Assembly (NCBI GenBank): GCA_964525785.1
Contig: CAZGIX010000003.1
Location: forward strand, 214-64,213
DNA length: 64,000 bases
Reading direction: 5' to 3'
Origin: an uncultured Anaerolineaceae bacterium
Lineage (GTDB): Bacteria; Chloroflexota; Anaerolineae; Anaerolineales; UBA4823
Shown here: positions 9,808 to 29,073 of the stretch, in pieces
Layout of the letters: every line of letters starts with the position of its first letter
Position numbering within the stretch: position 1 is the first letter of the stretch
Program-made: the position numbers and the translations under genes
Notes under the pieces: generated by a model
Databases searched by the model: none
The model's input: only the letters and a program-made list of their open reading frames with translations
What the model was told of the DNA's origin: nothing

Positions 9808-10524
9808 CTATGCCAGCGCCTGGTTGGCGAGGCGCGGTTGGGCTTCCACGTAAACAAACCACTCATCGAGGGTAACAGGGTCGATCAAACGCAGCGTACC
9901 AGGGGCAGCTCCCAGGATGCGCTCCACCGCATCGTTATAAGCCGCGACAATGGTATGGATCAAACGAAAGTCAGCATCATGCGTAAGAAGCAGCCGTGAA
10001 ATTACTTCCCCCAGAGTCTGCCAGAGAGACAGAAACAGCTCGCCCGCCTGGTCAGGATAGGGGGTGTTTATGACGCCTTCCCGGATGCCCTGGCGGATGA
10101 TCTCGGAGATGATGGGGGTGATGCGCTTGACTGTCAGAGCAAATACTTTCTGGCGCACAATGGCGTTATGATCTGCATACCAGACGCGCAGCAGCGCCAG
10201 CATAAAATCTTTGCGGTCCGTTTTCCAGCGCGCCGCGGCTTCGAAATAGCGCTCGAGCTTATCGAAGGCAGACAGGCTGGAATCCTGCACGATCGGGTTC
10301 AGCCTCTGCTCTGCCTCGTCCAGCAAGCGTTCGATGAGGGCTTCAAGCAGGTCTTGTTTTGAGTCGAAATAGTGGTAGAAGGCTCCCTTGGAGATGTGAA
10401 GCTCGTCCAGGATATCATGGATCGTCATCTGCTCATAGCCTTTGGTGTACACAAAACGTTGAGCGGCGTCCAGGATTTCGTTGCGCCTTGCGGCGCGGTC
10501 ATATTCTTTAATGGTGCGTGCCAT
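9808..10524 (-). CDS. TetR/AcrR-family transcriptional regulator
   Basis: N-terminal TetR HTH GYEQMTIHDILDELHISKGAFYHYFDSKQDLL. It is the first gene of the minus-strand efflux operon. Confidence 0.9.
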   Translation of the reverse strand: MARTIKEYDRAARRNEILDAAQRFVYTKGYEQMTIHDILDELHISKGAFYHYFDSKQDLLEALIERLLDEAEQRLNPIVQDSSLSAFDKLERYFEAAARWKTDRKDFMLALLRVWYADHNAIVRQKVFALTVKRITPIISEIIRQGIREGVINTPYPDQAGELFLSLWQTLGEVISRLLLTHDADFRLIHTIVAAYNDAVERILGAAPGTLRLIDPVTLDEWFVYVEAQPRLANQALA

Positions 10525-10539
10525 TTCAGTACTCCGAAT

Positions 10540-10558
10540 TAAACCGACCGTCGGTTTA
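10540..10558. promoter_or_regulatory. perfect 9-1-9 palindrome, candidate TetR operator
   Basis: TAAACCGAC-C-GTCGGTTTA lies 15 nt upstream of the TetR start codon, just 5' of its GGAG ribosome-binding site. Confidence 0.45.
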
Positions 10559-10639
10559 TTATTCAGCCGATTATATCAAGCCTATTCATTGAAGTCAATC
10601 CCCAACTCCATGATGGGTGCACTCAAATGTTGTGGGTTT

Positions 10640-10684
10640 GGGTTGTGTGGCTTGAGCGGCGAAGCCGCTCAAGCCACACAACCC
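10640..10684. repeat. 21-bp perfect-stem hairpin with GAA loop (GCGAAGC-core hairpin family, copy a)
   Basis: GGGTTGTGTGGCTTGAGCGGC-GAA-GCCGCTCAAGCCACACAACCC, located in the divergent intergenic region. Confidence 0.8.
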
Positions 10685-10741
10685 GATAATTCCGCAACAA
10701 CTTTTTAGTGCTCCCCTTGATACCAGGGCTTTGATAGCTTC

Positions 10742-10757
10742 ACCTGACCGGTCAGGT
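10742..10757. promoter_or_regulatory. 16-bp perfect palindrome of unknown role
   Basis: ACCTGACCGGTCAGGT sits in the intergenic region between the TetR operon and the beta-helix gene. Confidence 0.3.
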
Positions 10758-10869
10758 TAAGCGTTGGTTAGGGATAGGCGGGTTTTATCGTTTGTTGTTC
10801 TATAATGTGAATGCGCCTGGCATCTATCTCCGGCACCCCACCCAGATCTGACCTCTATAGGATTGATCG

Positions 10870-12183
10870 ATGAAACCTCTTCTCTGCCTCGTGATTATCT
10901 TCATCCTCCTGACCGCGGTATCTGCTGCTTCAGCCCAGGGACGGGTGTATTACGTTGACTCATCCGGTTCGGACAGCACTGGCGACGGCAGCGCGGTAAG
11001 ACCCTGGGCTACAATTCGCTTCGCTGCCACCCAGGTGGGCACCGGCGATACGGTGCTGATCAACCCTGGCGCATACGAAGGTGGGATCATCGTCAAGACC
11101 GGCGGCGCGCCGCACGCGCCGATCGTTTTTCGCGCCAACGGCGAGGGGGTGATCGTCGAGGGCAGCGGTGAGGAGAGGGATGCGTTTTTCATCGAGAAAG
11201 CCGACTATGTCGTCGTTCAAGGTCTTACCATCCAGCATGCTGAGCGCGCCGGGCTGCGCATCTCCCAGTCGAACCACGTCACCGTGCGCGATAGCGTCTT
11301 CGCTGATAACGGCGTTTGGGGGATTTTTACCGATTTCAGCGACTACACGATGATCGAAGGCAGCCTATCCTACGGCGCAGTCGAGGAGCACGGCATCTAT
11401 ATCAGCAACTCCAGTGACTACCCGATCATCCGGCACAATATCCTGCACCACAATAACGGGTGCGGGCTGCACATGAACGGCGACATCAGCATGGGTGGAG
11501 ATGGAATCATCTCCTCGGGGTTGGTGGAGGGCAACATCATCTTCGAGAACGGCCCCGGGGGCGGCTCGGGCATCAATATGGACGGCGTCACCGATACGAT
11601 CGTGCGCAACAATCTGCTGTACAAAAACCACGCCAGCGGGATATCGCTCTACCAGATAGACGGCGGCAGCGGGTCGCAGAACAACCTGGTCTTGAACAAT
11701 ACGATCGTCATGGCTGAGGATGGGCGCTGGGGGATCAATATCGCCGGCGCTAACGATACGGGCAACCAGCTGCTCAACAACATCATCTACTCATATCACA
11801 GCTGGCGGGGCAGCATCTCGATCCCTGCACCGGACCTGGTTGGTTTTATCAGCGATTACAACGTGGTCATAGACCGCTTCAGCACAGACGGCGGCGGTAC
11901 GCGCCTCAGCCTGCTCGAATGGCAGGCGTTGGGCTACGATACCCATTCCCTGATCGCCACGCCCGACCAGCTTTTTGCAGACGAAAGCGCCAGCGACTAT
12001 CGCCTCAAACCCGGCAGCCCAGCGATCGATCACGGCACAATCCTGGACTCGGTGACAGACGACCTGCTTGGCAATCCCAGGCCCGCTGGGAGCACCCACG
12101 ACATAGGCGCATACGAATTCGCTTTAACGTTCGAGGTGAAGCAGGTGCTCTATTTACCCCTGACGATAAAATCATCAGAGTGA
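10870..12183 (+). CDS. secreted right-handed parallel beta-helix repeat protein
   Basis: The signal peptide is LLTAVSAASAQG. Motifs are YYVDSSGSDSTGDGSAVRPWATI and repeated NxxxxN/G turns (HNILHHNNGCGLHMNG, NNLLYKNHASGISL, NNLVLNNTIV). The C-terminal segment is YRLKPGSPAIDHG...DIGAYEF. Confidence 0.8.
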   Translation: MKPLLCLVIIFILLTAVSAASAQGRVYYVDSSGSDSTGDGSAVRPWATIRFAATQVGTGDTVLINPGAYEGGIIVKTGGAPHAPIVFRANGEGVIVEGSGEERDAFFIEKADYVVVQGLTIQHAERAGLRISQSNHVTVRDSVFADNGVWGIFTDFSDYTMIEGSLSYGAVEEHGIYISNSSDYPIIRHNILHHNNGCGLHMNGDISMGGDGIISSGLVEGNIIFENGPGGGSGINMDGVTDTIVRNNLLYKNHASGISLYQIDGGSGSQNNLVLNNTIVMAEDGRWGINIAGANDTGNQLLNNIIYSYHSWRGSISIPAPDLVGFISDYNVVIDRFSTDGGGTRLSLLEWQALGYDTHSLIATPDQLFADESASDYRLKPGSPAIDHGTILDSVTDDLLGNPRPAGSTHDIGAYEFALTFEVKQVLYLPLTIKSSE

Positions 12184-12546
12184 TCCATCCTCCTTGAGGC
12201 GAACATTTATAAAATAGGGCTGAAAAGCAGAGCCGGTTGCTTTCCTACACCTATGAGCCATTGATGCCAGCCATTGGCACGCGAGGCTAACGAATCCTTA
12301 ACGCGATTAAATACAAAATTAATATATAATAGATCGGATTTATCTAATAATTCTGATGGAATGATTCGAGCGAAGGCAAATCTTCCGGTACTTTGCCTAC
12401 CAGTAGTGCGGGATGCATAGTGGAGACAGGACCTGCTTGCCGGACCATATATCAAATTACCGTTGTTCTACAGAAGACAACCCCGGTCATGCACTGCTCC
12501 AATCCAATAAGACAAACTACATATTCCTAGAATATAGGCTGCAGTA

Positions 12547-15500
12547 ATGGGATTTGTTGGCGAAGGCATACAACCCGTCGGCTTACCACCCCTGGATGTA
12601 CGGCTGCTCGGACCGCCAGAAGTCACCTGGCAGGGTTCGCCGATCAGCATTCCACGCCGCCAAACGCGCGCCCTGCTCTATTACCTGGCTGCCCGTCCCC
12701 AGCTTATCCCGCGCGAGAGCTTATGCCTGCTCTTTTGGGCTGATTCCCCTACCTCCCATGCCCGGCGCAACCTGACCCACCTGCTGAACAACCTGCGCAA
12801 GGTACTGCCCAAGCCGGACTTGCTGCTCACCAACGAAGACCGCGTGGGTTTGGATCCGCGCCTGGTGTATTCCGACCTGCTGGACTTCGAGCGCCTATGC
12901 GGTATGCAAGCCAGTGCAAATCAAGCCGTAAAAAGCCTGGAACAAGCAGTGAGCCTGTATCGCCGGCCTTTCCTGGACGGGGTGGTGCTGCCCCACGCAG
13001 GCGAGTTCGAAGCCTGGGTACGCCAGCAGCAGCAATCCTGCGAGCGATGCTATCTAGATGCCCTGTCTGCGCTGGTAGCGGAATATACCCGGCGTGGTGA
13101 TTACCAAAAGGCAATCATCTACGCCCGGCGCGCCTTAAAAGCGGATGAGCTTAACGAGGAAATGCACCGCCACTTGATCGAGCTGTACGCTCTCAGCGGC
13201 GACCGCCTGGCAGCTCTACGGCAATACGAGACCTGCATCACCGTCCTCGAACGCGAACTGGGCGTGGACCCTCTGCCCGAGACCAGGGAAGTATATCGGA
13301 CCGTACTGGAGGGGAATCAACCGGGGCCAGCTAACGCCCATCGCCCAACCTGGACGACCCTACCGGGGCTGAACGTACCCTTCGTGGGACGCCAGGATGC
13401 CCTGCGCCTCCTGGATAAAGCGTTATCGCGCGCCCGGCATGGGCACGGCGGGGTACTGTGGATTACCGGCGAGCCTGGTATAGGGAAGACACGCCTGCTC
13501 CAGGAATTCGCTTCCCGGCACGAGGGCAATGCATACCTGTTAGTAGGCAATGCAAGTGCCAATATGCAAACGTATCCTTACCACGCGCTTGTGCAGGCTC
13601 TGCGCCCCGCTCTGCAGGACCCGGCCGTCCGCCGTCGTGTTGCACCTCATTGGCTGGCAGAGGTGCTACGAAGCCTGCCCGAGATGGACGCAGACGCCCA
13701 AACTACCGGCGCAAGGGACCTGACCGACAGGAGACATTTGTTCGAGGCTTTACGCCAGGTGATGTTATCTCTGGCAAGCAGTCCTGAGCCGATCATCCTC
13801 TGCCTGGACGATCTGCAGTGGAGCGACCATCCCACCCTGGAATGGCTGGCTTACCTGGCTCAATCTCTATCCGGCAGCCCGATCCTGGTAGCGGCTTCCT
13901 GCTGCTCGCCCGAGGCTGGAAGGCTGGAACCCTTGAGACGGCAGCTATGGCGCCTGGGCTGCCTGACCGAAATTCCCCTCGCCGGATTAGAGTCTGGTGA
14001 GATCGTACAAATACTCTATCAGGTTGCCAGCCCGTCAGCAGGCGTACAGCACATTGCTGAACGCCTGCTGGAAGCGACCGGCGGCAATCCCTTCTTCGTG
14101 CTGGAAATCTTGCGTGAGAGGCTGGAATCTGGGCGGCTGCCCGAAAACCTGCCTGATCTGGATGAGCTGACCTTGCCTGCCAGCGTCAAGCAGGCAGTGG
14201 AAAGCCACCTCGAGCATTTAAGCCCGGTAGCTGCTCAGGTTCTGCAGGCAGTATCGGTGCTGCACCCCCCCTTGAATTTTGACAGCCTGGTGATAACCAC
14301 CGGACGCTCCGAGCAGGAAGTGGTGGACGCGTTGGATGAGCTGGTATCTCGCCAATTCCTGGTCATGGAACATCACGGTGATACCCCGGCATCCCAGGAC
14401 AGGCCTCATCGCTATCAGTTTCTGCACCGGATCGTAAGATCGGTGGTGTATAACGGCATGAGTCCCTGGCGGCGGCAATTGCTGCACCAGCGCGCTGCCC
14501 AGGCTACGCAGGCCCTCCAGCCCAGCGATCCTGCGGCGCTTGTCTGGCATTACCAGCACGCCAATCTGCCGGGAATGGCGGCGATATATGCCTTGCAAGC
14601 CGGGGAGTCAGCCTGTGCGGCCTACGCCCCTTCTCAGGCCCGCGACTATTTCAGCACCGCCATCTCCTGCCTGGAGGCCGAGCTGCCCAACCTGTTTGGG
14701 GAAGCCAACATCGCTAACAACCGGAAATTGCTCATCCAGGCATTCGTCGGACGATGTTGGACGCATCATTTACAGGGAGAGATGAGCCGCTACGAAGAAG
14801 ACCTTCATTATGCAATACGGGCGGCTGAGGCGCTACATGACCAGGCAATACTGGCCTCGCTGTGCTGGCGCCAGGCCTGCGTGCAACGCTGGTTTTGCCG
14901 GTTCAGTGAGGCGCTCCAGGCCGCCCAAGAAGGGACAGAGCTTTGCCACCTCAGTGCGGATGCACGCGCCGAAGCCTTCTGCTGGCGCGAGTTGGGTTTG
15001 GCCGCGGGCGCAATGGGCAGTTATATGACGGCTGAGCTGGCAATTCAGCAGGCCTTAGACGGCTTTATTCGTCTAAACGAGGCCGCCTACCAGATCCATA
15101 CCCTTGGCAACCTGTCCAACTTGTACTTAATGATCGGGGATGCCCCGCGTGCCAGATCCCTGGCGCTGCAGGCTTTGGAGCAATGCGAGCAGGCCGAGCT
15201 GCACTTTGAAAAACGCATTCCCCTGGGTGATTTGGGCGCTGCCGACCTGGCCTTGGGAGAGATGAATGCGGCCCATGCCTCCCTGGAAGAGTGCCTGCAG
15301 CTATCTCGCCAGGTAGGCGACCGCAGCCAGGAGATATTCGCCCTGAGACACCTGGGCCAGCTGATGTCCAGGTCCGCTTCGCCCGGCGATGCCTTGAGCA
15401 AACTCAGGATTGCACTGGATTTAGCCGAAAAGATCGGTTCACAGATCGAACAACCAGGGCTGCTGGCAGATATGGCAGAGATTTACCAGCAGATAGGTCA

Positions 15501-15630
15501 GGTCGAACAGGCGCGCCAATACGTGGGACAATCCGTGAGGGTGGCTGAGAGGATCGGGTTGGCTACCGATCTGGAGCGCGCCAGGCGGCTGGCAGTTGCT
15601 CTCGCGGAGCTGCACTCTTTACCCCAATAA
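12547..15630 (+). CDS. SARP/AfsR-type transcriptional activator (winged-helix + BTAD + P-loop NTPase + TPR)
   Basis: The N-terminus LDVRLLGPPEVTWQGSPISIPRRQTRALLYYLAAR has an OmpR-type DNA-binding fold. The BTAD segment reads YRRPFLDG...EEMHRHLIELYALSGDRLAALRQYE...LGVDPLPETREVY. Walker A is GEPGIGKTRL and Walker B-like is ILCLDDLQW, followed by a long TPR-like C-terminus. Confidence 0.85.
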   Translation: MGFVGEGIQPVGLPPLDVRLLGPPEVTWQGSPISIPRRQTRALLYYLAARPQLIPRESLCLLFWADSPTSHARRNLTHLLNNLRKVLPKPDLLLTNEDRVGLDPRLVYSDLLDFERLCGMQASANQAVKSLEQAVSLYRRPFLDGVVLPHAGEFEAWVRQQQQSCERCYLDALSALVAEYTRRGDYQKAIIYARRALKADELNEEMHRHLIELYALSGDRLAALRQYETCITVLERELGVDPLPETREVYRTVLEGNQPGPANAHRPTWTTLPGLNVPFVGRQDALRLLDKALSRARHGHGGVLWITGEPGIGKTRLLQEFASRHEGNAYLLVGNASANMQTYPYHALVQALRPALQDPAVRRRVAPHWLAEVLRSLPEMDADAQTTGARDLTDRRHLFEALRQVMLSLASSPEPIILCLDDLQWSDHPTLEWLAYLAQSLSGSPILVAASCCSPEAGRLEPLRRQLWRLGCLTEIPLAGLESGEIVQILYQVASPSAGVQHIAERLLEATGGNPFFVLEILRERLESGRLPENLPDLDELTLPASVKQAVESHLEHLSPVAAQVLQAVSVLHPPLNFDSLVITTGRSEQEVVDALDELVSRQFLVMEHHGDTPASQDRPHRYQFLHRIVRSVVYNGMSPWRRQLLHQRAAQATQALQPSDPAALVWHYQHANLPGMAAIYALQAGESACAAYAPSQARDYFSTAISCLEAELPNLFGEANIANNRKLLIQAFVGRCWTHHLQGEMSRYEEDLHYAIRAAEALHDQAILASLCWRQACVQRWFCRFSEALQAAQEGTELCHLSADARAEAFCWRELGLAAGAMGSYMTAELAIQQALDGFIRLNEAAYQIHTLGNLSNLYLMIGDAPRARSLALQALEQCEQAELHFEKRIPLGDLGAADLALGEMNAAHASLEECLQLSRQVGDRSQEIFALRHLGQLMSRSASPGDALSKLRIALDLAEKIGSQIEQPGLLADMAEIYQQIGQVEQARQYVGQSVRVAERIGLATDLERARRLAVALAELHSLPQ

Positions 15631-15710
15631 ACCTCAGTTCGGGATAAGAGAAGGGTGTGGGGGAAATTTTCATAAAACACTCATAAAAAGGGATAAATAT
15701 TGTCCTATTC

Positions 15711-17199: not shown

Positions 17200-17257
17200 A
17201 GACTATGCGTAGATACTGACAATCACAAGAAAGTAGAAGTTATCTAAAAAATGGTTC

Positions 17258-17300
17258 TTTGGGGTGTGTGTGGCGGCGAAGCCGCCACGCACACCCCAAA
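17258..17300. repeat. 20-bp hairpin with GAA loop (GCGAAGC-core hairpin family, copy b)
   Basis: TTTGGGGTGTGTGTGGCGGC-GAA-GCCGCCACGCACACCCCAAA with one G-T wobble. It lies between ORF 16078-17199 and the sheath gene. Confidence 0.8.
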
Positions 17301-17379
17301 ACCTCCTGTTTTTGAGATAGCCTCTAGTAAGACGCAATCACCCATTTACCCGTACTTGTTCAAAAGGAGTGACAAAACC

Positions 17380-19053
17380 ATGGCAGAAATGATCTTACCC
17401 GGAACTTATATTGAAGTGCGTCCAGAAGGGCTGATTGTCCCCGGTCGGGTGACGGTGGGCAACATCGGCATCGTCGGCACAGCCAGCAAAGGGCCGGTTG
17501 GCGATCCAACCGTCCTGAGCAGCTACCTGGAGGCACGCGCCAGGTTCGGCGATTACGACGCCTGGGTAGACGGAGCCAGCAGTGAGCTCACCCTGGTACG
17601 TGCCTTGCAGCTGGCTTTCAGCCACGGCGCGACGACCGTGATCGCAGTTCGCGTGGCAGGCGACAGCGCTGAAGCGGCTGACTACATGCTCGGCAGCGCC
17701 AGCGGCGACTGCGTGCGGCTCATCGCCAAGACCGAGGGGACCTGGGGCAACAACCTGATGGTGCAGGTAAGCGCCGCGGATGAGCCCGCTTTTATTGAAG
17801 GTGAAGAGCATACCGGAGCAGACCCGATCAGTCTGGCATCCACTCCGGTGCTGAAGAGCGCCCGCAACCGGGTGCGCCTGTTCACTGCCGGCGATGGGCT
17901 GACCCGCTCGCTGCAGATCATCTACGATGACGATGCATCCGCGCCTACCGCCAGCCAGGTGAAGATCAGCCGCAACGACGGCGCGCTGACCTTCGCCGCG
18001 CCACTCGACCCGGCAGATATTGTCACCGCCTCCTATATGGTCGACTCTGCCAGCGCCGTCAAGGTGACCATCAAGCTGGACCGTAATGAAGAAGTCTATA
18101 CCGTGGTCAACGGCGACGACCTGGCTGCCGATATCAACCGCTCACCAGGTGGCTCCGTCTGGGTGACCGCTGAGGTACAGGCAAACTCATCTGAACTGCC
18201 CAACCTGCTGACCGACTTTGGCGCCTTCGGCACCGGCGCCAATACCCACGGGGACGACGGTGCTGACGCCGATGAGGGCAAGTACAAAGAAGGTCTTGAG
18301 CTCCTGCTCAATGAGGATGCCCATATCATCCTGGCGGCCGGGCAGTCCGAGAGCTTTGGGGCAGAGCTGAACGCCCACTGCCAGAGCGCTTCCACCGATG
18401 CGATCAAGCGTGACCGCATTGCTGTGGTCGGCTCCACGCTGGGCGCCAGCCTGGACGATATCCGCGGTCATAACTTCGACAGCGACCGGCTCGTTTACAT
18501 CGCCCCAGGCATCCAGACTTTCGATGACGCCGGCGGGGTTCAGGTGACCCTGCCGGGAGCTTACGCCGCGGCAGCAGTGGCAGGCTTGCTGGCAAGCTAC
18601 TCGCCCCAAATCAGCCTGACCAACAAACCCATCTCGGTAGATGGGCTTGAGTTCAAGTTCACCAGCCCCGAGCTGACCCAATTGGTGCAGAGCCGGGTAT
18701 TAGCCCTGGAAGTACGCCAGGGACACCGCGTCGTCAAGGGCATCACCACCTCTACCAATACCGCCTGGCACCAGATCACCACCCGGCGCATCGTGGATTA
18801 CGCCAAATTTGGCGTGCGCTCAGCAGCCAATCCTTACATCGGCCTGCTCAACAACGAGCGGGTGCGCGGCGCGCTGCAATCCACCATTGCCAGTTTCTTA
18901 AACGAGATGGTAGCAGACGAGATGCTGGTGAGCTATGACCTGAGCGTTACCTCCACCCGCGAGGAGGAGCGCCAGGGAATTGTCAACGTGACCATGGTGC
19001 TGCGCCCGGTGTTCAGCATCGACTTCATCAAAGTGACGATGTTCCTGGAGTAG
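17380..19053 (+). CDS. contractile tail sheath protein
   Basis: AAGGAG ribosome-binding site 8 nt before ATG 17380. The N-terminus is ILPGTYIEVRPEGLI...GIVGTASKGPVGDPTVLSSYLEARARFG, followed by TEGTWGNNLMVQV. The C-terminal sheath domain reads RRIVDYAKFGVRS...NNERVRGALQSTIASFLNEMVADEML...IVNVTMVLRPVFSIDFIKVTMFL. Confidence 0.9.
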   Translation: MAEMILPGTYIEVRPEGLIVPGRVTVGNIGIVGTASKGPVGDPTVLSSYLEARARFGDYDAWVDGASSELTLVRALQLAFSHGATTVIAVRVAGDSAEAADYMLGSASGDCVRLIAKTEGTWGNNLMVQVSAADEPAFIEGEEHTGADPISLASTPVLKSARNRVRLFTAGDGLTRSLQIIYDDDASAPTASQVKISRNDGALTFAAPLDPADIVTASYMVDSASAVKVTIKLDRNEEVYTVVNGDDLAADINRSPGGSVWVTAEVQANSSELPNLLTDFGAFGTGANTHGDDGADADEGKYKEGLELLLNEDAHIILAAGQSESFGAELNAHCQSASTDAIKRDRIAVVGSTLGASLDDIRGHNFDSDRLVYIAPGIQTFDDAGGVQVTLPGAYAAAAVAGLLASYSPQISLTNKPISVDGLEFKFTSPELTQLVQSRVLALEVRQGHRVVKGITTSTNTAWHQITTRRIVDYAKFGVRSAANPYIGLLNNERVRGALQSTIASFLNEMVADEMLVSYDLSVTSTREEERQGIVNVTMVLRPVFSIDFIKVTMFLE

Positions 19054-19063: not shown

Positions 19064-19606
19064 ATGGCACTCTCTCATATCTATACTGGCGCACATGGCA
19101 CGATCAGCCTGGCGGTGGAAGGCACACCCTCCCAGCAAGCGGATTTCAACGCCATTACAGGCGCTTATGGCGATACGATCTTCAATCCGGTAGGCACGGT
19201 TGTCGATGTGGAGTTCTGCGTGCAGACCGAGCTGCAAGAATTTTTTAACTTGGGTAGCCGGGATCCTGCCGTCCTCATGCCCGGCAACGTTCACTTAAGC
19301 GGTAAGATCGGACGCACCTATATCAATGGCACACTGCTGCTCCTGCTGCTGGGACGCGGCGCCAAAGACGCCCTGACCACCATCCAACCGCGTTTTGCTT
19401 TGAACCTGCAGCTGAGCGATCCTACCGATCCTACTGAAAAATTAAAGGTCGTCCTGACGGGTGTGAAGTTCGAGAACTGGGCGGTGCGTGTCCCACAGGA
19501 TACCTTCGTGATGGAAAATGTCACTTTCAAGGCCATCGGCATCACCGTCACGGACACTGACGAAAGCACCGAGATCAACGTGGCTTTCCCAGAGCTCGGC
19601 ACCTGA
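19064..19606 (+). CDS. tail tube protein (XkdM-like)
   Basis: 180 aa directly after the sheath gene, with an AGGAGG ribosome-binding site. The segment LMPGNVHLSGKIGRTYINGTLLLLLLG resembles the XkdM-type tube pattern. The call rests mainly on position and size. Confidence 0.65.
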   Translation: MALSHIYTGAHGTISLAVEGTPSQQADFNAITGAYGDTIFNPVGTVVDVEFCVQTELQEFFNLGSRDPAVLMPGNVHLSGKIGRTYINGTLLLLLLGRGAKDALTTIQPRFALNLQLSDPTDPTEKLKVVLTGVKFENWAVRVPQDTFVMENVTFKAIGITVTDTDESTEINVAFPELGT

Positions 19607-21538: not shown

Positions 21539-21568
21539 GTATCTATGCTGTTATGAGCCTGAGCCGCT

Positions 21569-22117
21569 ATGAAACCGATGCTTGATGATTTAGAGCTTCC
21601 GCTGGTCCAGGAGATCGCTACGCACGACCGCCGGTCTCTGGCCGAGCATAAGCCGCCCGGGATGGAGGGCAGCCTGCTTCAGAACCTTGGGCGCAGACCT
21701 GAGCGCCTGGTGCTGTGGGGCATCGCTGCCGGTGACGAGGCCCAGGATACCATCGAAAAGCTGGATGAGAAGTTCAAGAACGGCGGGCCTTTCGCCTTCA
21801 CCGCCGACATCTCCGCCGACTCGGAGATCGAGCAGGTGGTGATCGATGATTTTCAGGTGCAGGAGATCGCAGGCAAGCCGCAGCGCTTTGCATTCACCCT
21901 GGCGCTGCGCGAGTTTATCGAGCCAGTGGAGCCTGAAGATTTTTCTGCCCTGGGTGCTGACATTCTGGATGAAGCCGGCGAGCTGATGGACGACCTGCTG
22001 GGCGGCTTGGATATCGGCATCGACTTCGCGAGCGGGCTGGAGCGCTTTGCCAGCTCTATGAGCGACCTGTTAGGTCGCCTGCAGGAATTTAAGAATACGA
22101 TCGAGAACTCAAGGTAA
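21569..22117 (+). CDS. baseplate hub-adaptor domain protein (Mu gp43 / DNA_circ_N-like pattern), short paralog
   Basis: MKPMLDDLELPLVQEI...HKPPGMEGSLLQNLGRRPERLVLWG...GGPFAFTADI...EIAGKPQRFAFTLALREF. It aligns along its length with the first ~125 aa of ORF 22583-26269. Confidence 0.55.
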   Translation: MKPMLDDLELPLVQEIATHDRRSLAEHKPPGMEGSLLQNLGRRPERLVLWGIAAGDEAQDTIEKLDEKFKNGGPFAFTADISADSEIEQVVIDDFQVQEIAGKPQRFAFTLALREFIEPVEPEDFSALGADILDEAGELMDDLLGGLDIGIDFASGLERFASSMSDLLGRLQEFKNTIENSR

Positions 22118-22129
22118 TGGAGGTATCCA

Positions 22130-22555
22130 ATGGCAACTACCCCAGGTAGCCTGTTCGAGGATCTAAAAAATGCGTTGAAGGATTTCAAAGAATTCCTCGA
22201 CCAGAATGTCAACACCATCAAGCCTGCTATCGCAGCCCTTAAATCGCTGGTCCCGCAGATAACGGAACTGCTGGATAAGCTGGTCGAGCTGATGGGAAAG
22301 CTCAAAGACGAAATCAACGGACTGAACGTCAGCGCCATCCCGGGGCTGGCAGAGGCTTCCGAATTCACTGATAAGATGAAGGGTTTTCTGAACGCCATGA
22401 AGACGCTGCTTCCCGACGAAGCCGGGGAGATCGACAGCGTGCTGGAGGTAGCGAACCTGGTCACTGGACTGCCCTCCCTTGACGATGTCAAGGCCGAGAT
22501 CCTGGGCCTGATCGACGCCATCATCGGGCACCTCAATACCTTGAAGAGCGCCTAG
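22130..22555 (+). CDS. small all-helical K/E/L-rich hypothetical protein
   Basis: 141 aa with no TM segment. It appears more AT-rich than its neighbours by eye, and it is wedged between the two hub-adaptor paralogs. Confidence 0.55.
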   Translation: MATTPGSLFEDLKNALKDFKEFLDQNVNTIKPAIAALKSLVPQITELLDKLVELMGKLKDEINGLNVSAIPGLAEASEFTDKMKGFLNAMKTLLPDEAGEIDSVLEVANLVTGLPSLDDVKAEILGLIDAIIGHLNTLKSA

Positions 22556-22582
22556 AAAAATGTGTGAGACGCGCGGGGAGCC

Positions 22583-25500
22583 ATGCCGGTAAAACCTATG
22601 TTGGGCGATCTGGAGCTGCAGTTGGTTCAGCAGCTTGAAGCAGCCGAGCACCAGGTGCGTGCCCAGCATGCCGTTCCGGCGCTGGAGGGCGATTTCCTCC
22701 AGGCGTTGGGACGCCGCGCCACCAGCTTCACCCTGGCGGGCGTGCTGTCTAATGAGGATGGCACCGTGGGTGAGGAGCTGAAAAAGCTGCGAGAGAAGTT
22801 CCGCCAGGCAGAGCCCGTCGAGTTCGTCGCCGACATCTTCACCGCTGTGCGCGTCGATACAGTGCTGATCGAAGAGATGAGCGTGCGCGAGCTGGCGGGC
22901 AAGCCAGAGCGCTTCGAGTATGCCTTCACCCTGCGCGAGTACATCCCTGCCCCTGCACCCGAAATAGAACCTCCGCCTCCACCGCCGCCGGCGCCTACTA
23001 CCAGCCTGATCGTGACCGTTATTGTGGATGGCCAGCCCGGCTACGATTTCAGCCAGGTGGAAGTGAAAGTGGAAGGCACGCAGGAGGATGGGAACAGGCT
23101 GGACCGGGCACTGACCAACCGCAACGGAAACGTCTGGGAGGAAGCCACCTTCCCGCCCGGCAGCTACCGCGTGATCGCTGTCGGCCCTGACCCGGTGGAA
23201 ACTGGTGCGGTGATGGCAAACGAAGCCCAGGCCGAAATCTTGGAGGGTGAACGCGAAGAGGTCACTATCACGCTGACGCCGGGGCAGCGGCGCAATGTGG
23301 CAGTCGCCTTGGTAGTGCATTACTGGTTCGACAAGGCTTTTATCGAGCCGTGCCTGCGCCCGGTGCTGCGCGAGGTAGCGCAGCGCGCGGCTGGTGGACG
23401 CGAGAAGCTGCTCATTGTGGGCCACACAGACCTGACCGGCTCCGCCCAATACAACCAGGCACTCTCGGAACGGCGCGCCCGCGGCGTACACGCTTACTTG
23501 ACATTTAAGAATGATCCGGATGCCGCCGTAGCTGAATGGAACGAGCTGCGTAAAACCCGCACTGTGGGCGTGACCAACACGCTCAACGATACCTGGGGCG
23601 TGCGCGAGTACCAGTATATGCTCCAGGATCTGGGCTTCTACACCGGGAATATCAACGAGAGGCATGATGACGCCACAGATGAAGCCGTGCGCGCTTTCCA
23701 GCGCTCCAAAGGGCTGGACGACGACGGTATCATGGGCGACCAGACCTGGCCTCTGCTGATACGCGACTATCTGGCGCAGGACTCTCTTTCATTGGACGAC
23801 AGCGTGTTCTTCCCGAATGCCCGCGACGGCTGTGATGGCGGGCTGGTGCGCTGGATCGGCTGCGGCGAGCTGGACCCGGTGGAGAACACCCAGGACGCCT
23901 GGCGCCCCAACCGGCGGACCGAAATGCTGTTCGTCATTGCCTCGGAGATCCCTTGCGATCTTCCCCGCCCGGTCACCTGGGACATTCGCCCGGATGGCAC
24001 CGATGCGCCGGAGTGGTGCCTGGGCCCGGGTGACATCAACAAGCCCTGCTGCTTCCTCTCCCGCAGCGCCCAGGCCTCCGACAAATGGCTGGTTCAGCCC
24101 GCCCACCCGGAGACTGTACAGGTGAGCGGTCAGATCACATTCGACGATGGCATCACGCCCTATGCCAACAAGCACTACGCGCTGATCGCCGCGGACGGCA
24201 AATTCCTGCACAAGAAAGTGCAGAATGGGCAGGAAGTAGAAGATAAGGGCGAAGTACCCTCCGGCGCGGATCGCGGGCGGCCTATTTTTATGCTCACCGA
24301 CGACCAGGGCAATTTCTCCCACCCGGTGAACACCCCAGTTGGTGTTTACATTTTGGAGCTGCCAGACCTTCAGCCTCCTGAGCTGGCACGCGAAGAGGAG
24401 GATCCCCCTTCATCCGCGCGCGGCAACGTGGTGTGCCTGGAGATCGACCCGCCCGCCACGCCAGGTGGCACGATCCCCGCCCAGCACGTGATCGTCCAGC
24501 CCGGACCGGTGCCGCCTGCCCCCGTCAACCCAGCCATTACCCTGGGGGTTCCGTTTGTGGCGGTGAAAAAGCCGCATACCAACCCGCCGCGCGTGCAGGT
24601 CACTTTGAGAAGCGACTCGGCCTTCAACGGCACCGGCACGCTCGACCGCTCGGGCAACACCGCCGCCGTGCGCCTGTTCGACGCTGCCACCGGCGGAAAC
24701 GAGATCACCTTCAACGGAACAGATAATGTCTTTCCCGGGAGAGGTCTGGCAGCCGGATTGCAGCTGTTTGCGGAAGCCGGCCCGGCGCCCAGTGGCGCGG
24801 TGGGCGATTACACGCTCACGCTGACCTTAAATCCGGCCGCGGCTGCCACACCGGTGGGTCCACCAGCTACCGCCTCCCTGACCGCCGTGCTCTTCACCCT
24901 GGATATTGGCTTGAGCCGTCCGGCCCCAGGGGTAGACCCGCCCCTCATGTCTGAAGCGGACAAGATCAACGTTGGGCGCCATACACAGCTGGGCGACCCG
25001 GCGTTTTCGCATGAACGCACCATGATTATCGTCCGCCAGCCCACACCGGCTGTCCCATCCACCCTGGAGCTGGTTCCTCAGAACGGGCGCGTGCAGCTGT
25101 TTACTCAGGAGACGCCCGCTGGAGGGCAGGCAGCGCTGGGCACCCCGCAAGTCATCGGTGGTGCAGGCGCAGTGCCTGCGGAGACGCGCTTATTTGCAGA
25201 GGGCGCCTCAGTCAGCACGGCGGTGCGGGATACCGGCTTTATCCTGCGCGTGCGGGAGCTGGGGGCGGAAGTGGACCGGGTGGCAATCACGGTTTGCTCC
25301 GCAGCGCTTACCAACAATACTGCCCCATTTAATACCCCGGTCGCCAGAGTCCAGATTGAGGGCATCCTGAACCGGGAATTAAATCCCAACGCGGGCACCT
25401 TTGCCCTGGCAGATTTGTTCGGCACTCAAGCCAATTCATTATTCAGGGCGCGGGTAGATATTCCGGGCGTGGCGGGGAACACACTCATCGCCGTACTGGT

Positions 25501-26269
25501 CAGCAGTCTGGCAAATGGGACGCAAATCGAGCGCCAGAATGTCACCCTGACGCGCACCACCGGCAACCGGTTCGCCTCGCTGCCGCTGCTGGCTATCCCG
25601 GATGCCATACCGCGCAACGAGATCACCTTTGCCAACCCACAAGACATCGAGGTGATCCGGACGCGGGCCGGCGGGCGCCTGCGGCTTGAATTCGACACCC
25701 TGTCAGGCGTAGCTGTCCATACGGTGCGAGTGCGTGGCCGCGTCCTACAATTGTGCTCGATCACCATCCAGGGAGCGGCGCCAAATATCAACGGCAACCT
25801 GACCACTGCCAATCGTGTGATGGCCCAAAATGGTACGGAGTTCCGTCTCACGACCCTACCCAATGTGAATAATCCGGTGCTGCTCGACATCCAGCGCACA
25901 ACCTGCCCGCTGACCATTGGCGGGGATGCCAACCGGTCAGCAGAAGAAACCGCTCTGTTTGCCCTTGGACGCGCCGGCTGCGCTGCCAACTTCATTGTCT
26001 ATTTCATCCGTTCGGACAGCATGGGTTTGAATGGATGCTCGGCTTTCCCGGCGGGGCAACCCGGGGTCACAGTGTCAGACATTGCCAGCCAATATACCTT
26101 CGGGCATGAGATCGGCCATGTCTTACACCTCCCACACGACGGGCGGGCGAACAACCTGATGACCGGCGCCGGGACAGCCGGTCTGCCTGCCAACCCTGCC
26201 AACGTCTTTTTGGAACAGGACCAGTGCACGCTGATGAACAACAGCGGATTCTTGACTTTTATCGAGTGA
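22583..26269 (+). CDS. giant hub-adaptor fusion: Mu gp43-like N-domain + Pro linker + OmpA-like + PG_binding_1-like + long beta-rich region + C-terminal metzincin-like motif
   Basis: The N-domain is PMLGDLELQLVQQL...LEGDFLQALGRRATSFTLAG...ELAGKPERFEYAFTLREY. The linker is PPPPPPPAP. The OmpA_C motif GHTDLTGSAQYNQALSERRARGVHAYL lies at about 23297-23510. The PG_binding_1-like segment LGFYTGNINERHDDATDEAVRAFQRSKGLDDDGIMGDQTW lies at about 23593-23770. The Zn motif HEIGHVLHLPHD (26105-26140) is followed by NNLMTG. Confidence 0.7.
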   Translation: MPVKPMLGDLELQLVQQLEAAEHQVRAQHAVPALEGDFLQALGRRATSFTLAGVLSNEDGTVGEELKKLREKFRQAEPVEFVADIFTAVRVDTVLIEEMSVRELAGKPERFEYAFTLREYIPAPAPEIEPPPPPPPAPTTSLIVTVIVDGQPGYDFSQVEVKVEGTQEDGNRLDRALTNRNGNVWEEATFPPGSYRVIAVGPDPVETGAVMANEAQAEILEGEREEVTITLTPGQRRNVAVALVVHYWFDKAFIEPCLRPVLREVAQRAAGGREKLLIVGHTDLTGSAQYNQALSERRARGVHAYLTFKNDPDAAVAEWNELRKTRTVGVTNTLNDTWGVREYQYMLQDLGFYTGNINERHDDATDEAVRAFQRSKGLDDDGIMGDQTWPLLIRDYLAQDSLSLDDSVFFPNARDGCDGGLVRWIGCGELDPVENTQDAWRPNRRTEMLFVIASEIPCDLPRPVTWDIRPDGTDAPEWCLGPGDINKPCCFLSRSAQASDKWLVQPAHPETVQVSGQITFDDGITPYANKHYALIAADGKFLHKKVQNGQEVEDKGEVPSGADRGRPIFMLTDDQGNFSHPVNTPVGVYILELPDLQPPELAREEEDPPSSARGNVVCLEIDPPATPGGTIPAQHVIVQPGPVPPAPVNPAITLGVPFVAVKKPHTNPPRVQVTLRSDSAFNGTGTLDRSGNTAAVRLFDAATGGNEITFNGTDNVFPGRGLAAGLQLFAEAGPAPSGAVGDYTLTLTLNPAAAATPVGPPATASLTAVLFTLDIGLSRPAPGVDPPLMSEADKINVGRHTQLGDPAFSHERTMIIVRQPTPAVPSTLELVPQNGRVQLFTQETPAGGQAALGTPQVIGGAGAVPAETRLFAEGASVSTAVRDTGFILRVRELGAEVDRVAITVCSAALTNNTAPFNTPVARVQIEGILNRELNPNAGTFALADLFGTQANSLFRARVDIPGVAGNTLIAVLVSSLANGTQIERQNVTLTRTTGNRFASLPLLAIPDAIPRNEITFANPQDIEVIRTRAGGRLRLEFDTLSGVAVHTVRVRGRVLQLCSITIQGAAPNINGNLTTANRVMAQNGTEFRLTTLPNVNNPVLLDIQRTTCPLTIGGDANRSAEETALFALGRAGCAANFIVYFIRSDSMGLNGCSAFPAGQPGVTVSDIASQYTFGHEIGHVLHLPHDGRANNLMTGAGTAGLPANPANVFLEQDQCTLMNNSGFLTFIE

Positions 26270-26272
26270 ATT

Positions 26273-26743
26273 ATGCCAACGCGAGAAGAAATCATAGCAC
26301 TCATGCAGGAAGATGAATTCAGCGGATTAGGCAGGCTGATCGAGATGGGCGAAGAGGCCGTGACCCTCTTAACCGACATTTTGAAAGATCCGTCTGCGCC
26401 GAAGTACCTGCGCTACCGGGCAGCCATCGCGCTGGGAGAGATCGGGGCACCCGCCTCTGCCGATGCCATCCAGGAGACCCTTGAAGACGATGATCCGGTA
26501 CAAAAACAGCTGAGCATCCGCGCCCTGGCTAAGATCCAGGGCAAAGAGGCGACCAGCGTACTGATCGCCTTACTGGATGATCCCGATTTTTCTGTTGCCA
26601 AGGTTGCCATGCAACTGCTATCCGAGGTGGGCGATGAAACCGCCCTGGCAGCCCTGGAACACCAAAAAACCGAAAACCCCGAACCGCTTCTGCGCTCGCA
26701 GGCTGAGGCTAGCATCCAGGATATCCAGCGCCGAATAGCTTAA
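26273..26743 (+). CDS. HEAT-repeat (PBS-lyase HEAT-like) protein
   Basis: 156 aa, starting 3 nt after the previous stop. Repeats are YRAAIALGEIGAPASADAIQETLEDDDPVQKQLSIRALAKIQGKEATSVLIALLDDPDFSVAKVAMQLLSEVGDETALAALE. Confidence 0.7.
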   Translation: MPTREEIIALMQEDEFSGLGRLIEMGEEAVTLLTDILKDPSAPKYLRYRAAIALGEIGAPASADAIQETLEDDDPVQKQLSIRALAKIQGKEATSVLIALLDDPDFSVAKVAMQLLSEVGDETALAALEHQKTENPEPLLRSQAEASIQDIQRRIA

Positions 26744-26753
26744 GAAATCTGCT

Positions 26754-27818
26754 ATGGACACGACCTTCCTCACCCCGGCCTATAAGCTCACTTTCTCCCA
26801 GGCGGCGCCTGCCGCCGGCGGATCTGTCGGCGCCGCCCTGCCGGTCGCCTCCGGCGGCAAGGTAGTGGATACCACTGACGAGCCGCAGGCCTCTACCGTT
26901 GTGGAGCTGATCGTCGCACTCGACCTGGAGGCGCCGGCTGACTCCCTTACCCTGGTGATGGGGCAGGTGGGCACCTTCCGCCCTCAGAAGGGCGACCAGG
27001 TGAAAGTGGAGCTGGGATATGTCGATGCTGAGAATGGCCTGCAGCACGTGCTCACCGCAGACCTTCTGAACGTCGAGCCGGGCGTGACGCAGCGGCGGCT
27101 GGTAGGTCATTCCAGTATGCACAAGCTGCTCGCCTCATTTGCCGATGAGCATTTCGAGAACAAGACCGCCGGGGAGATCGTGCAGGATCTGGCGGAGCGC
27201 GCCGGGGTGCCGGTAGAGCGCGCCGAAGCTGGCAGCCGCTTCCAGGCTTACGTGATCGATGGGCGGCGCAGCCTATACCGGCACATGCGCGACCTGGCTG
27301 ACCTGTGCGGCTTCGACCTTTATGTAAACCCGGAGGGAGAGCTGATCTTCGAAAAATTCGTCGGGGGCCAGGCTGTGCATGTCTTCGAGTTTGGCAAACA
27401 CATCCTGGACCTGCAGATAATTCAGCGCGAGCCATTTGCCGCCTCAGTGGAGGCCTTGGGGGAAAGTCCCGGCGGTGGGCAGGACGCCGAAGCCTGGGCC
27501 TGGCTCACCAAGGACTTCGCCTCCAACAAGGGCAGCGCCGGTCAGGGCGATCCGCTCTATCTTCTGGAGCGCCCTGCCCTGCGCAACGCCCAGGCAGCCC
27601 GCACCGCTGCCGAAGCGCTCCAGACCCGCTTCACCCGCGATATGCTGCGCGGCCGGCTGTACCTCATCGGCAGCCCCCAGGTGAAGCTGGGAGACGCCAT
27701 CCGGCTGAAATCGCTGCCGGACGAATCCCTGAACGCTTCCTACCAGGTGCGCGCTGTCACCCACCGCATCACCAAATCTGCCGGCTTCACTACCATGATT
27801 ACTTTCCGGAGCATCTAA
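26754..27818 (+). CDS. baseplate hub protein, gpD / Mu gp44 / gp27-like
   Basis: 354 aa. Motifs are FENKTAGEIVQDLAERAGVPVE, YVIDGRRSLYRHMRDLADLCGFDLYVNPEGELIF and a C-terminal YQVRAVTHRI. It lies directly before the spike gene. Confidence 0.7.
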   Translation: MDTTFLTPAYKLTFSQAAPAAGGSVGAALPVASGGKVVDTTDEPQASTVVELIVALDLEAPADSLTLVMGQVGTFRPQKGDQVKVELGYVDAENGLQHVLTADLLNVEPGVTQRRLVGHSSMHKLLASFADEHFENKTAGEIVQDLAERAGVPVERAEAGSRFQAYVIDGRRSLYRHMRDLADLCGFDLYVNPEGELIFEKFVGGQAVHVFEFGKHILDLQIIQREPFAASVEALGESPGGGQDAEAWAWLTKDFASNKGSAGQGDPLYLLERPALRNAQAARTAAEALQTRFTRDMLRGRLYLIGSPQVKLGDAIRLKSLPDESLNASYQVRAVTHRITKSAGFTTMITFRSI

Positions 27819-27852
27819 ACACCTTGACCGCTGAATACCTGCTCACTTTAGA

Positions 27853-28671
27853 TTGGAGATTTATCCTTTGACTACCATTCTCAGCACCATCCAGGAGATC
27901 GTCCGCCACGAGCTGCGCGCCGTACGCATTGCAGAGCTTGGGCTGGTAGAGGATGTCTACCCGCATGAGGCGGACTCAGATGCGGATAACTACGCCTGTG
28001 ATGTGCGCCTGAAGAACAGCGGGCTGCTGCTCAAACGTGTCCCGGTCGCCTCTGGGCATATCGGCACCGTCGCCATCCCCAATGTGGGCGACCTGGTGCT
28101 GCTAACTTTTGAAAAGGGCGATATCAACCAGCCGGTTATTATCGGACGCCTGTACAGCGATGATGATCGCCCGCCGTTCAACAAGCCGGACGAGGTCATC
28201 TTCCGCCTGCCCCTGGAGAAGGACGACGACGAATCGATCCTGGCCTCGATCAAGAACCACGGCGACCAGAGCCCGCCGCGGGAGGTGCTCCTGCAAATGC
28301 CGCCCAAGCTGAACGTGAAGATCACCGACGGCACCCTCACCGCCACAGCGGGCAAGACCGAGCTGAAGCTGGATAACCCCAACACCGGCGGCGGTACGGT
28401 GACCGTCTTGGCTGGGGGCACCAAGATCACCATGGACCAGGACGGCGATGTCAGCATCGAGGTGATGGGCTCGATGAGCGTCAAAGCCAACGGCGATCTA
28501 AGCCTGGAAGCTACCAGCATATCGATCAAGGCCCAGGCGAACGTGGATATTCAGGCAAACGCCTCGGCAAACATCAAAGCTAGCGGGATGCTGGGTCTGC
28601 AAGCTGGCGGAGCCGCCACGCTCCAGGGCGCAGTGGTCAATATCAAGGGCGTCACAAACTTCTCGATGTGA
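27853..28671 (+). CDS. central spike protein, gpV / gp5 OB-fold plus beta-helix
   Basis: The OB-fold reads GLVEDVYPHE...YACDVRLKNSGLLLKRVPVASGHIGTVAIPNVGDLVLLTFEKGDINQPVIIGRLYS. The repetitive beta-helix tail reads LKLDNPNTGGGTVTVLAGGTKITMDQDGDVSIEVMGSMSVKANGDLSLEA. The TTG start is uncertain. Confidence 0.8.
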   Translation: MEIYPLTTILSTIQEIVRHELRAVRIAELGLVEDVYPHEADSDADNYACDVRLKNSGLLLKRVPVASGHIGTVAIPNVGDLVLLTFEKGDINQPVIIGRLYSDDDRPPFNKPDEVIFRLPLEKDDDESILASIKNHGDQSPPREVLLQMPPKLNVKITDGTLTATAGKTELKLDNPNTGGGTVTVLAGGTKITMDQDGDVSIEVMGSMSVKANGDLSLEATSISIKAQANVDIQANASANIKASGMLGLQAGGAATLQGAVVNIKGVTNFSM

Positions 28672-28680
28672 GCACAGACT

Positions 28681-29013
28681 ATGCCTGGACCACCCGTCAC
28701 CATTGGCTGCAGCGTCGTTATCACCCCGGGAGCTGCTGGACCGCCGGATACCGGCACCATCCTGGGCATCTTCCCACCCTTCATAACCGCCAACGGCATG
28801 CCCCTGGCGACCAGCGGATCGATGTGCCTGATGGTCAATTCGGTATCGGGCATCCCATACCCGCTTGTCATTGGGCCGCTGGCTAGCAGCGGGGTGCGCG
28901 TGGCTGGTAAAGCACTGGTGCGTATGGGCGACCGCATCCCTACCCCGCCCGGCATACTGATCATCGTAGGCCCGCCAGCCACCAGCTCGATCATCGACAC
29001 CTCACCACCGTAA
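28681..29013 (+). CDS. PAAR-like spike-tip protein
   Basis: 110 aa directly after the spike gene. Two PAAR-like turns are present: ANGMPLATSGSMC and VAGKALVRMGDRIPTPPG. There is no literal PAAR motif. Confidence 0.5.
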   Translation: MPGPPVTIGCSVVITPGAAGPPDTGTILGIFPPFITANGMPLATSGSMCLMVNSVSGIPYPLVIGPLASSGVRVAGKALVRMGDRIPTPPGILIIVGPPATSSIIDTSPP

Positions 29014-29073
29014 GGCGCTGGTAGTTTGCGGTGCAAGAAATCAAAGGCGACAACTATATCGAGGAAATGATGT

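Follow-up and report, generated by a model that had tools for sequence, protein, structure and literature searches.

The question raised by this locus is why a protein that appears to belong to the core of a phage-tail-like particle should end in an enzyme-like domain and be followed by a small gene that seems to be its own. The window, that is, the whole stretch of 64,000 nucleotides (nt) analyzed here, comes from an uncultured Anaerolineaceae bacterium (contig CAZGIX010000003.1), and the gene in question (22583..26269, + strand; its product is 100% identical to the database protein P0001) encodes 1228 amino acids (aa) in which a predicted tube initiator, peptidoglycan-binding modules, a connector and an enzyme tail are joined. 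It is followed by a gene for a 156-aa HEAT-repeat protein of the partner family that we call G02 (26273..26743, +; Pfam HEAT_2 E=9e-19, HEAT_PBS E=1.6e-10). We propose that the 1228-aa protein is a second tube initiator whose exchangeable enzyme tail serves as an effector and is bound by the HEAT protein, a reading to which we assign a probability of about 60%; at the level of architecture, sequence comparison makes the polymorphic-effector reading well supported. A previous sequence-only reading of this DNA had suggested a hub adaptor evolved into a polymorphic-toxin-like fusion. Its hub-adaptor identity, the replacement of LysM, the metzincin fold and the polymorphic architecture were all borne out, and its alternative of an anchor in the producer's own wall was not.

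The first 125 residues (22583..22957, +) form a tube-like beta-barrel domain with a predicted tube-initiator fold. An AlphaFold2 (AF2) model covering aa 1-131 (predicted local distance difference test score, pLDDT, 79) was compared with the PDB by Foldseek, and the top matches were diffocin, Mu gp43 (9ki1; Mu chains of 419-446 aa) and pyocin R2 baseplates, together with chains of ~224 aa, the size of Cis7/Afp7, from the AFP, PVC, AlgoCIS, Anabaena and Streptomyces contractile injection system (CIS) baseplates. All these top matches have probability 1.0 and a template-modelling (TM) score of about 0.5-0.67, and they include at least eight solved baseplates. The matched chains are tube initiators, which combine a beta-barrel ring located between tube and hub with a LysM-containing domain that touches the wedges; moreover, Mu gp43 is reported to enter the host cell (PMC8894136, PMC8894135, PMC11915804). 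Fold comparison alone detected this relationship, as PDB sequence searches with the N-terminal domain and with the whole-family profile matched no baseplate protein, and Pfam gave only weak GpU and DUF6046 matches for the N-terminus. Residues 3-127 are homologous to the product of the open reading frame (ORF) at 21569-22117, with 41% identity, in agreement with the ~125 aa that the two proteins had been said to have in common, and the same pair of a short and a long paralogue is present in almost every related locus. The position of the long gene, between the tube/tape-measure genes and the hub/spike genes, is also held in the window and in ~70 loci. Fold and synteny thus support the assignment of the 1228-aa protein as a predicted second tube initiator of the Cis7/Afp7/Mu gp43 class, the place (Mu gp43/XkdP/Afp7) that had already been proposed for it.

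The second line of evidence comes from the family, for which the comparison set consisted of 120 protein homologues and of 78 genome loci obtained by scanning species-representative genomes. At E<=1e-3 there are 463 homologues of the 1228-aa protein; the majority follow it as far as aa ~905 only and from there on differ in length and sequence. The loci span Cyanobacteria, Chloroflexi, Acidobacteria, many Actinobacteria and Alpha-, Gamma- and Deltaproteobacteria, all with the same gene order. Module A (aa 1-622) is found in every one of them. Module B, a conserved connector (aa 630-905; 24470..25297, +), is usually fused to A and heads separate tail-bearing genes in other genomes: it is the N-terminus of a distinct downstream gene in eight loci (L030, L033, L034, L051, L054, L057, L062 and L081), the gene splits falling at aa 622-636. 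In some loci other tails are fused straight onto module A; in others the protein stops after module A, and a free-standing gene for an S8 subtilase of ~600 aa precedes the hub gene. The tails fall into at least 15 clusters, among which are zincin subtypes, with HExxH in at least six distinct contexts, a complete protein-arginine deiminase (E=1e-100) and a PETase-like alpha/beta-hydrolase. Single-linkage clustering of the tails merged all zincins through a common beta-sandwich, and re-clustering of the last 200 aa at stricter thresholds separated them.

Downstream of the gene that bears the last tail, one ORF of about 120-600 aa takes up the gap before the hub gene in almost every locus. Tails and partners were clustered independently and then compared by adjusted mutual information (AMI) with 2000 permutations: the correspondence between tail type and partner family is nearly one-to-one (AMI 0.88), and none of the 2000 permutations reached this value, the highest being 0.15. 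Module-A cores that are 85-87% identical bear different cassettes, and the same cassette types are found on cores only ~42% identical; because close cores differ in their cassette and distant cores share one, the correspondence does not follow from descent alone. The exchange is visible at the nucleotide level between the window and one related locus (L002): blastn gives 77-78% identity over 21567-25290 and 26765-31972 of the window, with clean breakpoints and no similarity in between. The exchangeable cassette delimited in this way (25291..26764, +) begins at codon ~903, runs to aa 1228 and includes the HEAT gene, so that on these alignments tail and partner are exchanged together as a single cassette. 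Its right-hand flank is the conserved gpD-like baseplate hub gene (26754..27818, +; NCBIfam VgrG_rel E=6.5e-11, PHROG baseplate hub). The polymorphic-toxin-like architecture suggested earlier is therefore recovered in the family, since homologues keep aa 1-905, the tails differ, and the downstream gene co-varies and swaps with the tail.

What, then, is the tail of the window protein? An AF2 model of aa 906-1228 (pLDDT 93, predicted TM score 0.90) consists of a beta-sandwich followed by an alpha/beta catalytic domain. The beta-sandwich domain (aa 906-1064; 25298..25774, +) has strands through tail residues 2-158 with pLDDT above 90; the beta-rich sequence ahead of the peptidase, put at ~700 aa by the sequence-only reading and at about 670 aa here, is in this part confirmed, the structural check being confined to aa 906-1064. 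The following domain (aa 1065-1228; 25775..26266, +) is zinc-peptidase-like, and both Foldseek and the family profile predict a metzincin fold for it. The best Foldseek matches of the tail are profragilysin-3, PAPP-A, archaemetzincin and a phage matrixin-family protease, all with probability 1.0. The family profile matches only metzincins in the PDB, with Bacteroides fragilis metalloprotease II (MPII) first (E=1.7e-7), adamalysins next, aligned along almost the entire domain, and then fragilysin, matrix metalloproteinases (MMPs), snapalysin and archaemetzincin. No Pfam family, including every Pfam metzincin model, scores above threshold in the C-terminal domain, and the sub-threshold matches are all metzincin ones (Reprolysin_5, M66, Reprolysin_3, M7 and M10).

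The catalytic signature is found where it had been located, and a metallopeptidase fold, looked for around 26105-26140 as a test of the earlier claim, is indeed predicted there by AF2 with Foldseek and by the family profile. The zinc-site motif H1175-E1176-xx-H1179-xx-H1182-xx-H1185 ... M1193 (HEIGHVLHLPHDGRANNLM; 26105..26161, +) is contained in HEIGHVLHLPHDGRANNLMTG, aa 1175-1195, which starts at nt 26105 and has the HExxH-type motif with Gly replaced by His at the position previously indicated. An exhaustive search with aa 906-1228 yielded 399 relatives at E<=1e-3, and the final ~170 aa turn up in many proteins (150-620 aa long) that are not otherwise related. Some of these carry in addition an LGFP wall anchor or an AbfB, DUF5648 or FG-GAP module, and they match M10/Reprolysin models only below threshold. 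The consensus of the relatives is HEVGHVLGLxHVxDxxRLMTGxGTxNITNPPP. H1175, E1176, H1179, H1185 and the downstream Met are invariant in the family alignment; at motif position 8, 72% of relatives have Gly and the injection-system clade has His or Asn (His1182 in the window), and the Met lies seven residues past the third His in 63% of relatives, as does M1193, the candidate Met-turn residue of the window protein. With 399 relatives in which these residues are invariant, the HExxH is not a chance occurrence, and because exhaustive search, structure model and family profile agree, the predicted C-terminal domain is a metzincin-fold member of an uncurated family. An identity with DUF4157 (PVC-metallopeptidase) was considered and rejected: the query and 10 representative tails gave no match to PF13699 at lenient thresholds, and the signature differs.

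The HEAT gene starts 3 nt after the stop codon of the 1228-aa gene (TGA-att-ATG), and is separated from the hub gene by TAA + 10 nt + ATG; upstream of the start codon of the 1228-aa gene (ATG, 22583) there is a GGGGAG motif. The ORFs, their junction and the HEAT start had been read correctly. As for its family, G02 and also G03, G04, G06 and G11 are divergent HEAT-type proteins, and G00, G01, G07, G08, G09 and G12 are unrelated to these and to one another. No locus pairs a G02 gene with a tail other than a zincin, so a retained HEAT gene after loss of the C-terminal domain, the case that would have spoken against the earlier pairing, was not seen; the divergent HEAT-like G06 accompanies arginine-deiminase tails. 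No N-terminal hydrophobic signal was found in the HEAT partners, that of the window being of a cytoplasmic type, and apart from G00 and from one or two loci of G03/G06 the partner families are without export signals. The G00 partners (~300 aa; e.g. L003 12973-13935 and L043 15067-15957) have, unlike the HEAT ones, hydrophobic N-termini and may, judging from these, be membrane-bound or exported; they pair with ~450-aa tails lacking HExxH, mostly in Actinobacteria.

Five standalone proteins found outside injection-system loci (P0252, P0237, P0214, P0235 and P0172) contain a peptidase domain and then a HEAT region in one chain. Their HEAT region is homologous to the G02 family (E down to 7e-13), and in the first four the homology of the window HEAT protein is with the C-terminal region. 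These single-chain fusions are independent evidence for a physical cooperation of the two proteins and suggest that the HEAT protein binds the peptidase directly, possibly as an inhibitor or a lock similar to a pro-domain, as a chaperone for folding or loading, or as a cofactor, classical immunity being only one of the options.

The same observations bear on a different explanation, in which the downstream gene encodes an assembly chaperone or cofactor and the tail is either an effector or a module for surface recognition and adhesion, following the logic of tail fibres. In fact, a conserved N-terminus, a variable C-terminus and a co-varying next gene are also the signature of a tail fibre with its Tfa-type chaperone; several tail types are served by divergent HEAT-like partners, peptidase and HEAT are found fused, and, with the exceptions given above, the partners carry no export signal. 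The tails are nevertheless enzymes with intact catalytic signatures and not receptor-binding folds, and the N-terminus is predicted to be an internal tube initiator and not a fibre attachment domain. Moreover, many partner families are mutually unrelated, as expected of immunity or inhibitor proteins for unrelated enzymes. We regard this explanation as unlikely.

The region between the N-terminal barrel and the tail has its own bearing on function. After the Pro-rich linker read off the translation (EIEPPPPPPPAPTT, aa 126-139; 22958..22999, +), in which PPPPPPP occupies aa 130-136 and the Pro run is kept in the family consensus, comes a conserved beta domain (aa 140-239; 23000..23299, +), present in all homologues and probably Ig-like or CarboxypepD_reg-like, to judge from sub-threshold Pfam matches only. 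It is followed by an OmpA-like peptidoglycan-binding module (aa 240-312; 23300..23518, +), where Pfam OmpA (PF00691) matches aa 250-307 with 31.5 bits, above the gathering cut-off of 27.2, over profile positions 5-65 of 98 only; the family profile matches Pal and OmpA structures in the PDB down to E=7e-13. Among 70 homologues, D283, N291, R297 and R298 do not vary. By analogy with the Pal and AbOmpA complexes, D283 and R297/R298 would be the conserved Asp and Arg through which OmpA-type domains contact diaminopimelate in peptidoglycan. The next module is a PG_binding_1 helical module (aa 328-393; 23564..23761, +; Pfam aa 340-389, E=6.9e-14), with profile matches in the PDB to the peptidoglycan-binding domains of SleB, an L,D-transpeptidase and a phage endolysin. 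NCBIfam and PDB sequence searches concur on both modules. Thus the linker and the two modules that the sequence-only reading had named are there, and Pfam finds no LysM in the 1228-aa protein; the replacement of the LysM domain described for tube initiators in the literature by OmpA plus PG_binding_1 is upheld.

Module A is closed by a conserved, Cys-containing, beta-rich region (aa 394-622; 23762..24448, +); in every locus where the gene is split or consists of module A only, the module stops at aa 619-629. Within it, GCGELDPVENTQDAWRPNRRTEMLFV (23850-23930, aa ~424-450), with GCGELDPV...NRRTEMLFV, resembles the C-terminal G-x-G-E...P...NRRVE end of OmpA-like domains; in particular, GCGE..P...NRRTE at aa 427-447 looks by sequence like the C-terminal strand (NRRVE motif) of the OmpA fold. 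An insertion of PG_binding_1 within an OmpA fold was not confirmed by deleting the PG_binding_1 segment, which did not lengthen the OmpA profile match. The 1228-aa protein has Cys at aa 257, 417, 427, 458, 479, 489, 490, 618, 905, 1058, 1108, 1133, 1152 and 1215; many of them are invariant or nearly so across the family, and four lie in the peptidase tail. From their conservation, they could form disulfides, implying function outside the cytoplasm, or metal sites.

Two further explanations start from the wall-binding modules. The first was already an alternative of the sequence-only reading: the modules would fasten the baseplate to the wall of the producing cell itself, in the manner of TagL and long-form TssL. 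A weak NCBIfam similarity to the OmpA domain of long-form TssL and the conserved peptidoglycan-binding residues are in line with it. The 1228-aa protein, however, has no detectable signal peptide or transmembrane segment (its maximum 19-residue hydropathy, 1.6, lies inside the peptidase core), so that the wall would be out of reach from the cytoplasm, where tail-like particles assemble; the same module is found in both monoderm (Actinobacteria) and diderm phyla, and the holin-family gene that closes the operon points to release by lysis. On these three grounds we consider an anchor on the producer side very improbable.

The second would make the protein a wall-penetration device, with no toxin as such: the modules would dock the tip on the target peptidoglycan, and the zinc peptidase would locally cut stem peptides or wall-linked proteins. 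Analogues exist in T4 gp5 lysozyme and in the M23 peptidases on siphophage tail tips, which are aids to wall crossing. The two peptidoglycan-binding modules are universal in the family and their binding-type residues invariant; PG_binding_1 usually goes with wall hydrolases, and among its PDB matches are SleB, a DD-carboxypeptidase and endolysin gp144; LGFP cell-wall anchors are joined to the peptidase in some of its standalone relatives; and the holin-family gene suggests particles released by lysis and acting on bacteria. The same position in other loci, on the other hand, holds an arginine deiminase, a PETase-like hydrolase and unrelated zincins, which are not wall hydrolases. The nearest solved relatives of the window peptidase (fragilysin, adamalysins, MMPs) cleave proteins and are not wall peptidases of the M15 or M23 type, and a cognate, co-swapped cytoplasmic partner is not obviously needed by such a device. 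We hold it to be quite unlikely.

The reading of the 1228-aa protein as a tube initiator with an effector tail can be put in terms of a mechanism. The tail would be a "specialised" effector, carried by a structural component as in the evolved VgrG, PAAR and Hcp proteins of type VI secretion. In the cytoplasm of the producer, the HEAT protein would bind the peptidase and either keep it inactive, as an inhibitor or immunity-like protein, or keep it folded for assembly. On contraction, the enzyme would be driven into the envelope of the target along with the OmpA-like and PG_binding_1 modules, which may dock there on the wall; delivery into the envelope is inferred because tube initiators sit at the tube tip and Mu gp43 enters the host. 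With regard to the fate of the tail, the linker of Alg7 is known from the AlgoCIS literature to be cleaved.

Several points weigh against this reading. The permutation test ignores phylogenetic relatedness, a weakness partly offset by the decoupling of cassette type from core phylogeny. Divergent HEAT-like partners go with several unrelated tail types, including the deiminase, and a general chaperone scaffold would fit this as well; one-chain peptidase-HEAT fusions are unusual for toxin-immunity pairs. The substitution of the metzincin Gly by His (Asn in some close relatives) could alter or abolish the geometry of the zinc site. Finally, an extension of ~1100 aa on a probably hexameric ring within the baseplate is sterically demanding.

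Comparison with known systems places the protein between several of them. With the LysM tube initiators (Afp7/Pvc7/Cis7/Alg7, Mu gp43, pyocin R2, diffocin) it shares the N-terminal beta-barrel fold, the gene position, a shorter paralogue upstream (cf. Cis5) and a peptidoglycan-binding module after a flexible linker. It differs from them in being five times longer, in having OmpA-like and PG_binding_1 modules in place of LysM, in its connector and its exchangeable tail with a partner, and in a sequence too distant for detection by PDB profiles. Like the evolved effectors of the type VI secretion system (VgrG, PAAR, Hcp), it joins a structural part to a variable C-terminal enzyme, has a cognate next gene and exchanges its cassette among close relatives; unlike them, the carrier is a tube initiator, the particle is phage-tail-like with a holin-family gene and not membrane-anchored, and the immunity role is putative. 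A constant N-terminus, diverse C-terminal enzymes, recombination-type cassette exchange, an adjacent co-varying gene and zincin payloads are also features of polymorphic toxin systems (Zhang, Aravind et al. 2012, PMC3482391). The DUF4157 "PVC-metallopeptidase", with its HExxHxxQ...E signature (PMC3482391), is N-terminal to toxins in separate, lumen-loaded cargo, whereas the zincin of the window is C-terminal, metzincin-type and located on a core structural protein. With the metzincins fragilysin, adamalysin and snapalysin the tail shares the fold, HExxHxx(G)xxH with a downstream Met and, as in snapalysin, a small catalytic domain (~165 aa); it departs from them by scores below Pfam gathering, a Met only seven residues after the third His and the change of Gly to His or Asn.

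The neighboring genes complete the picture of the particle. The operon order opens with an unknown gene (373 aa), followed by the sheath gene (17251-19053), whose similarity to its nearest PDB relative is marginal (E=2e-4), and by a 180-aa ORF at the tube-gene position (19064-19606), which has no profile match and was assigned via gene order. Then come a small gene with a weak, sub-threshold match to tail-assembly chaperones, a 430-aa Pro-rich gene, the first tube-initiator paralogue (182 aa; 21569..22117, +) and a 141-aa gene preceding the 1228-aa one. The first paralogue has a Cis5/Afp5-like position, is matched by phmmer with the core at query aa 3-127, and shows weak matches to DUF6046 in Pfam and to a PHROG "baseplate hub". 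The hub gene is followed, in this order, by a gpV-like spike gene, a 110-aa gene, a gp25-like gene and a J-like gene, and these by two giant ORFs of 1652 and 1519 aa (31126-36084 and 37190-41749, +) without Pfam match, the N-terminus of the former having only a weak match to a PHROG "baseplate protein". The last gene encodes a holin-family protein of 274 aa (41786-42610, +; Phage_holin_6_1 E=8e-9), and its place at the end of the operon suggests that particles may be released by lysis.

Directly upstream of the operon lies a gene for a BTAD-AAA_16-TPR regulator of 1027 aa (12547-15630, +); a regulator of the same type is found upstream of the operon in L002. Its AAA domain is the sole one, and it is outside the operon ORFs. 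Among the ORFs at 16078-42610 no Afp15-like AAA+ ATPase was found, with a sensitivity limited to Pfam and PHROG profiles, nor did Pfam and PHROGs identify a recognizable Afp16 cap gene; the lack of a detected Afp15-like ATPase in the window operon is a difference from Afp/PVC-type extracellular contractile injection systems (eCIS) in the sense of Chen et al. 2019. A prophage tail was rejected, as no head, portal or terminase genes are present in the window or in the examined flanks and the operon closes with the holin-family gene. By its gene content the locus is a predicted standalone phage-tail-like particle locus, remote from the characterized Afp/PVC systems because neither the AAA+ ATPase nor the cap gene is detected and the sheath is only marginally similar to solved sheaths.

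Other loci of the family show variations on the same arrangement. Two of them, L033 (12252-16034 and 16540-19323) and L051 (12617-16135 and 16574-19924), have two tandem genes composed of module B and a tail, with different tails, and in these Acidobacteria the arrangement resembles an effector array. Five module-A-only loci (L044, L052, L066, L068 and L077) have at the cassette position the ~600-aa S8 subtilase, which bears a fervidolysin-like prodomain; in Geoalkalibacter halelectricus (L003 15902-18334) an S8 subtilase lies between the spike gene and the 110-aa gene. A metagenome-assembled genome labelled as a Methanotrichaceae archaeon (L065) carries two tandem paralogous big genes (4705-9417 and 9971-15706). 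In Geobacter sulfurreducens, GSU0973-GSU0992 form a tail-like cluster (sheath, tube, ..., protein D, spike, wedge, glycosyltransferase) that is reported to be up-regulated in the biofilm of a gsu1771 mutant (PMC10599522). Its gene order is similar to that of the window operon, and it is a candidate family member only.

The payloads known so far in eCIS are separate, lumen-loaded cargo; as a rule they bear DUF4157 and their genes lie downstream of the operon. Toxin surveys in the literature score core structural genes as negatives. In open-access papers and bioRxiv we found nothing relevant on tube-initiator/effector fusions or on OmpA-bearing tailocin proteins. We tentatively extend our proposal to a payload route that has not been recognized, to which we would give somewhat less than an even chance: the tube initiators of a widespread, uncharacterized lineage of contractile particles would carry polymorphic enzyme cassettes (proteases, an arginine deiminase, hydrolases), each with a cognate neutralizing partner, and the OmpA-like and PG_binding_1 modules would dock the ejected tip in the target wall, where the enzyme would be released.

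The comparison also brings to light a metzincin family of several hundred proteins that has not been curated, and a partnership between peptidase and HEAT protein that recurs. If a core baseplate protein carries a swappable enzyme, toxin censuses miss a whole class of payloads. If the proposal is true, the junction at aa ~905 and the partner gene would jointly mark out a natural plug-and-play site for payload engineering on tail-like particles, and the long-puzzling peptidoglycan-binding module of tube initiators, which elsewhere is LysM, would gain a testable function in a lineage where two different wall-binding modules, their binding residues conserved, have taken its place.

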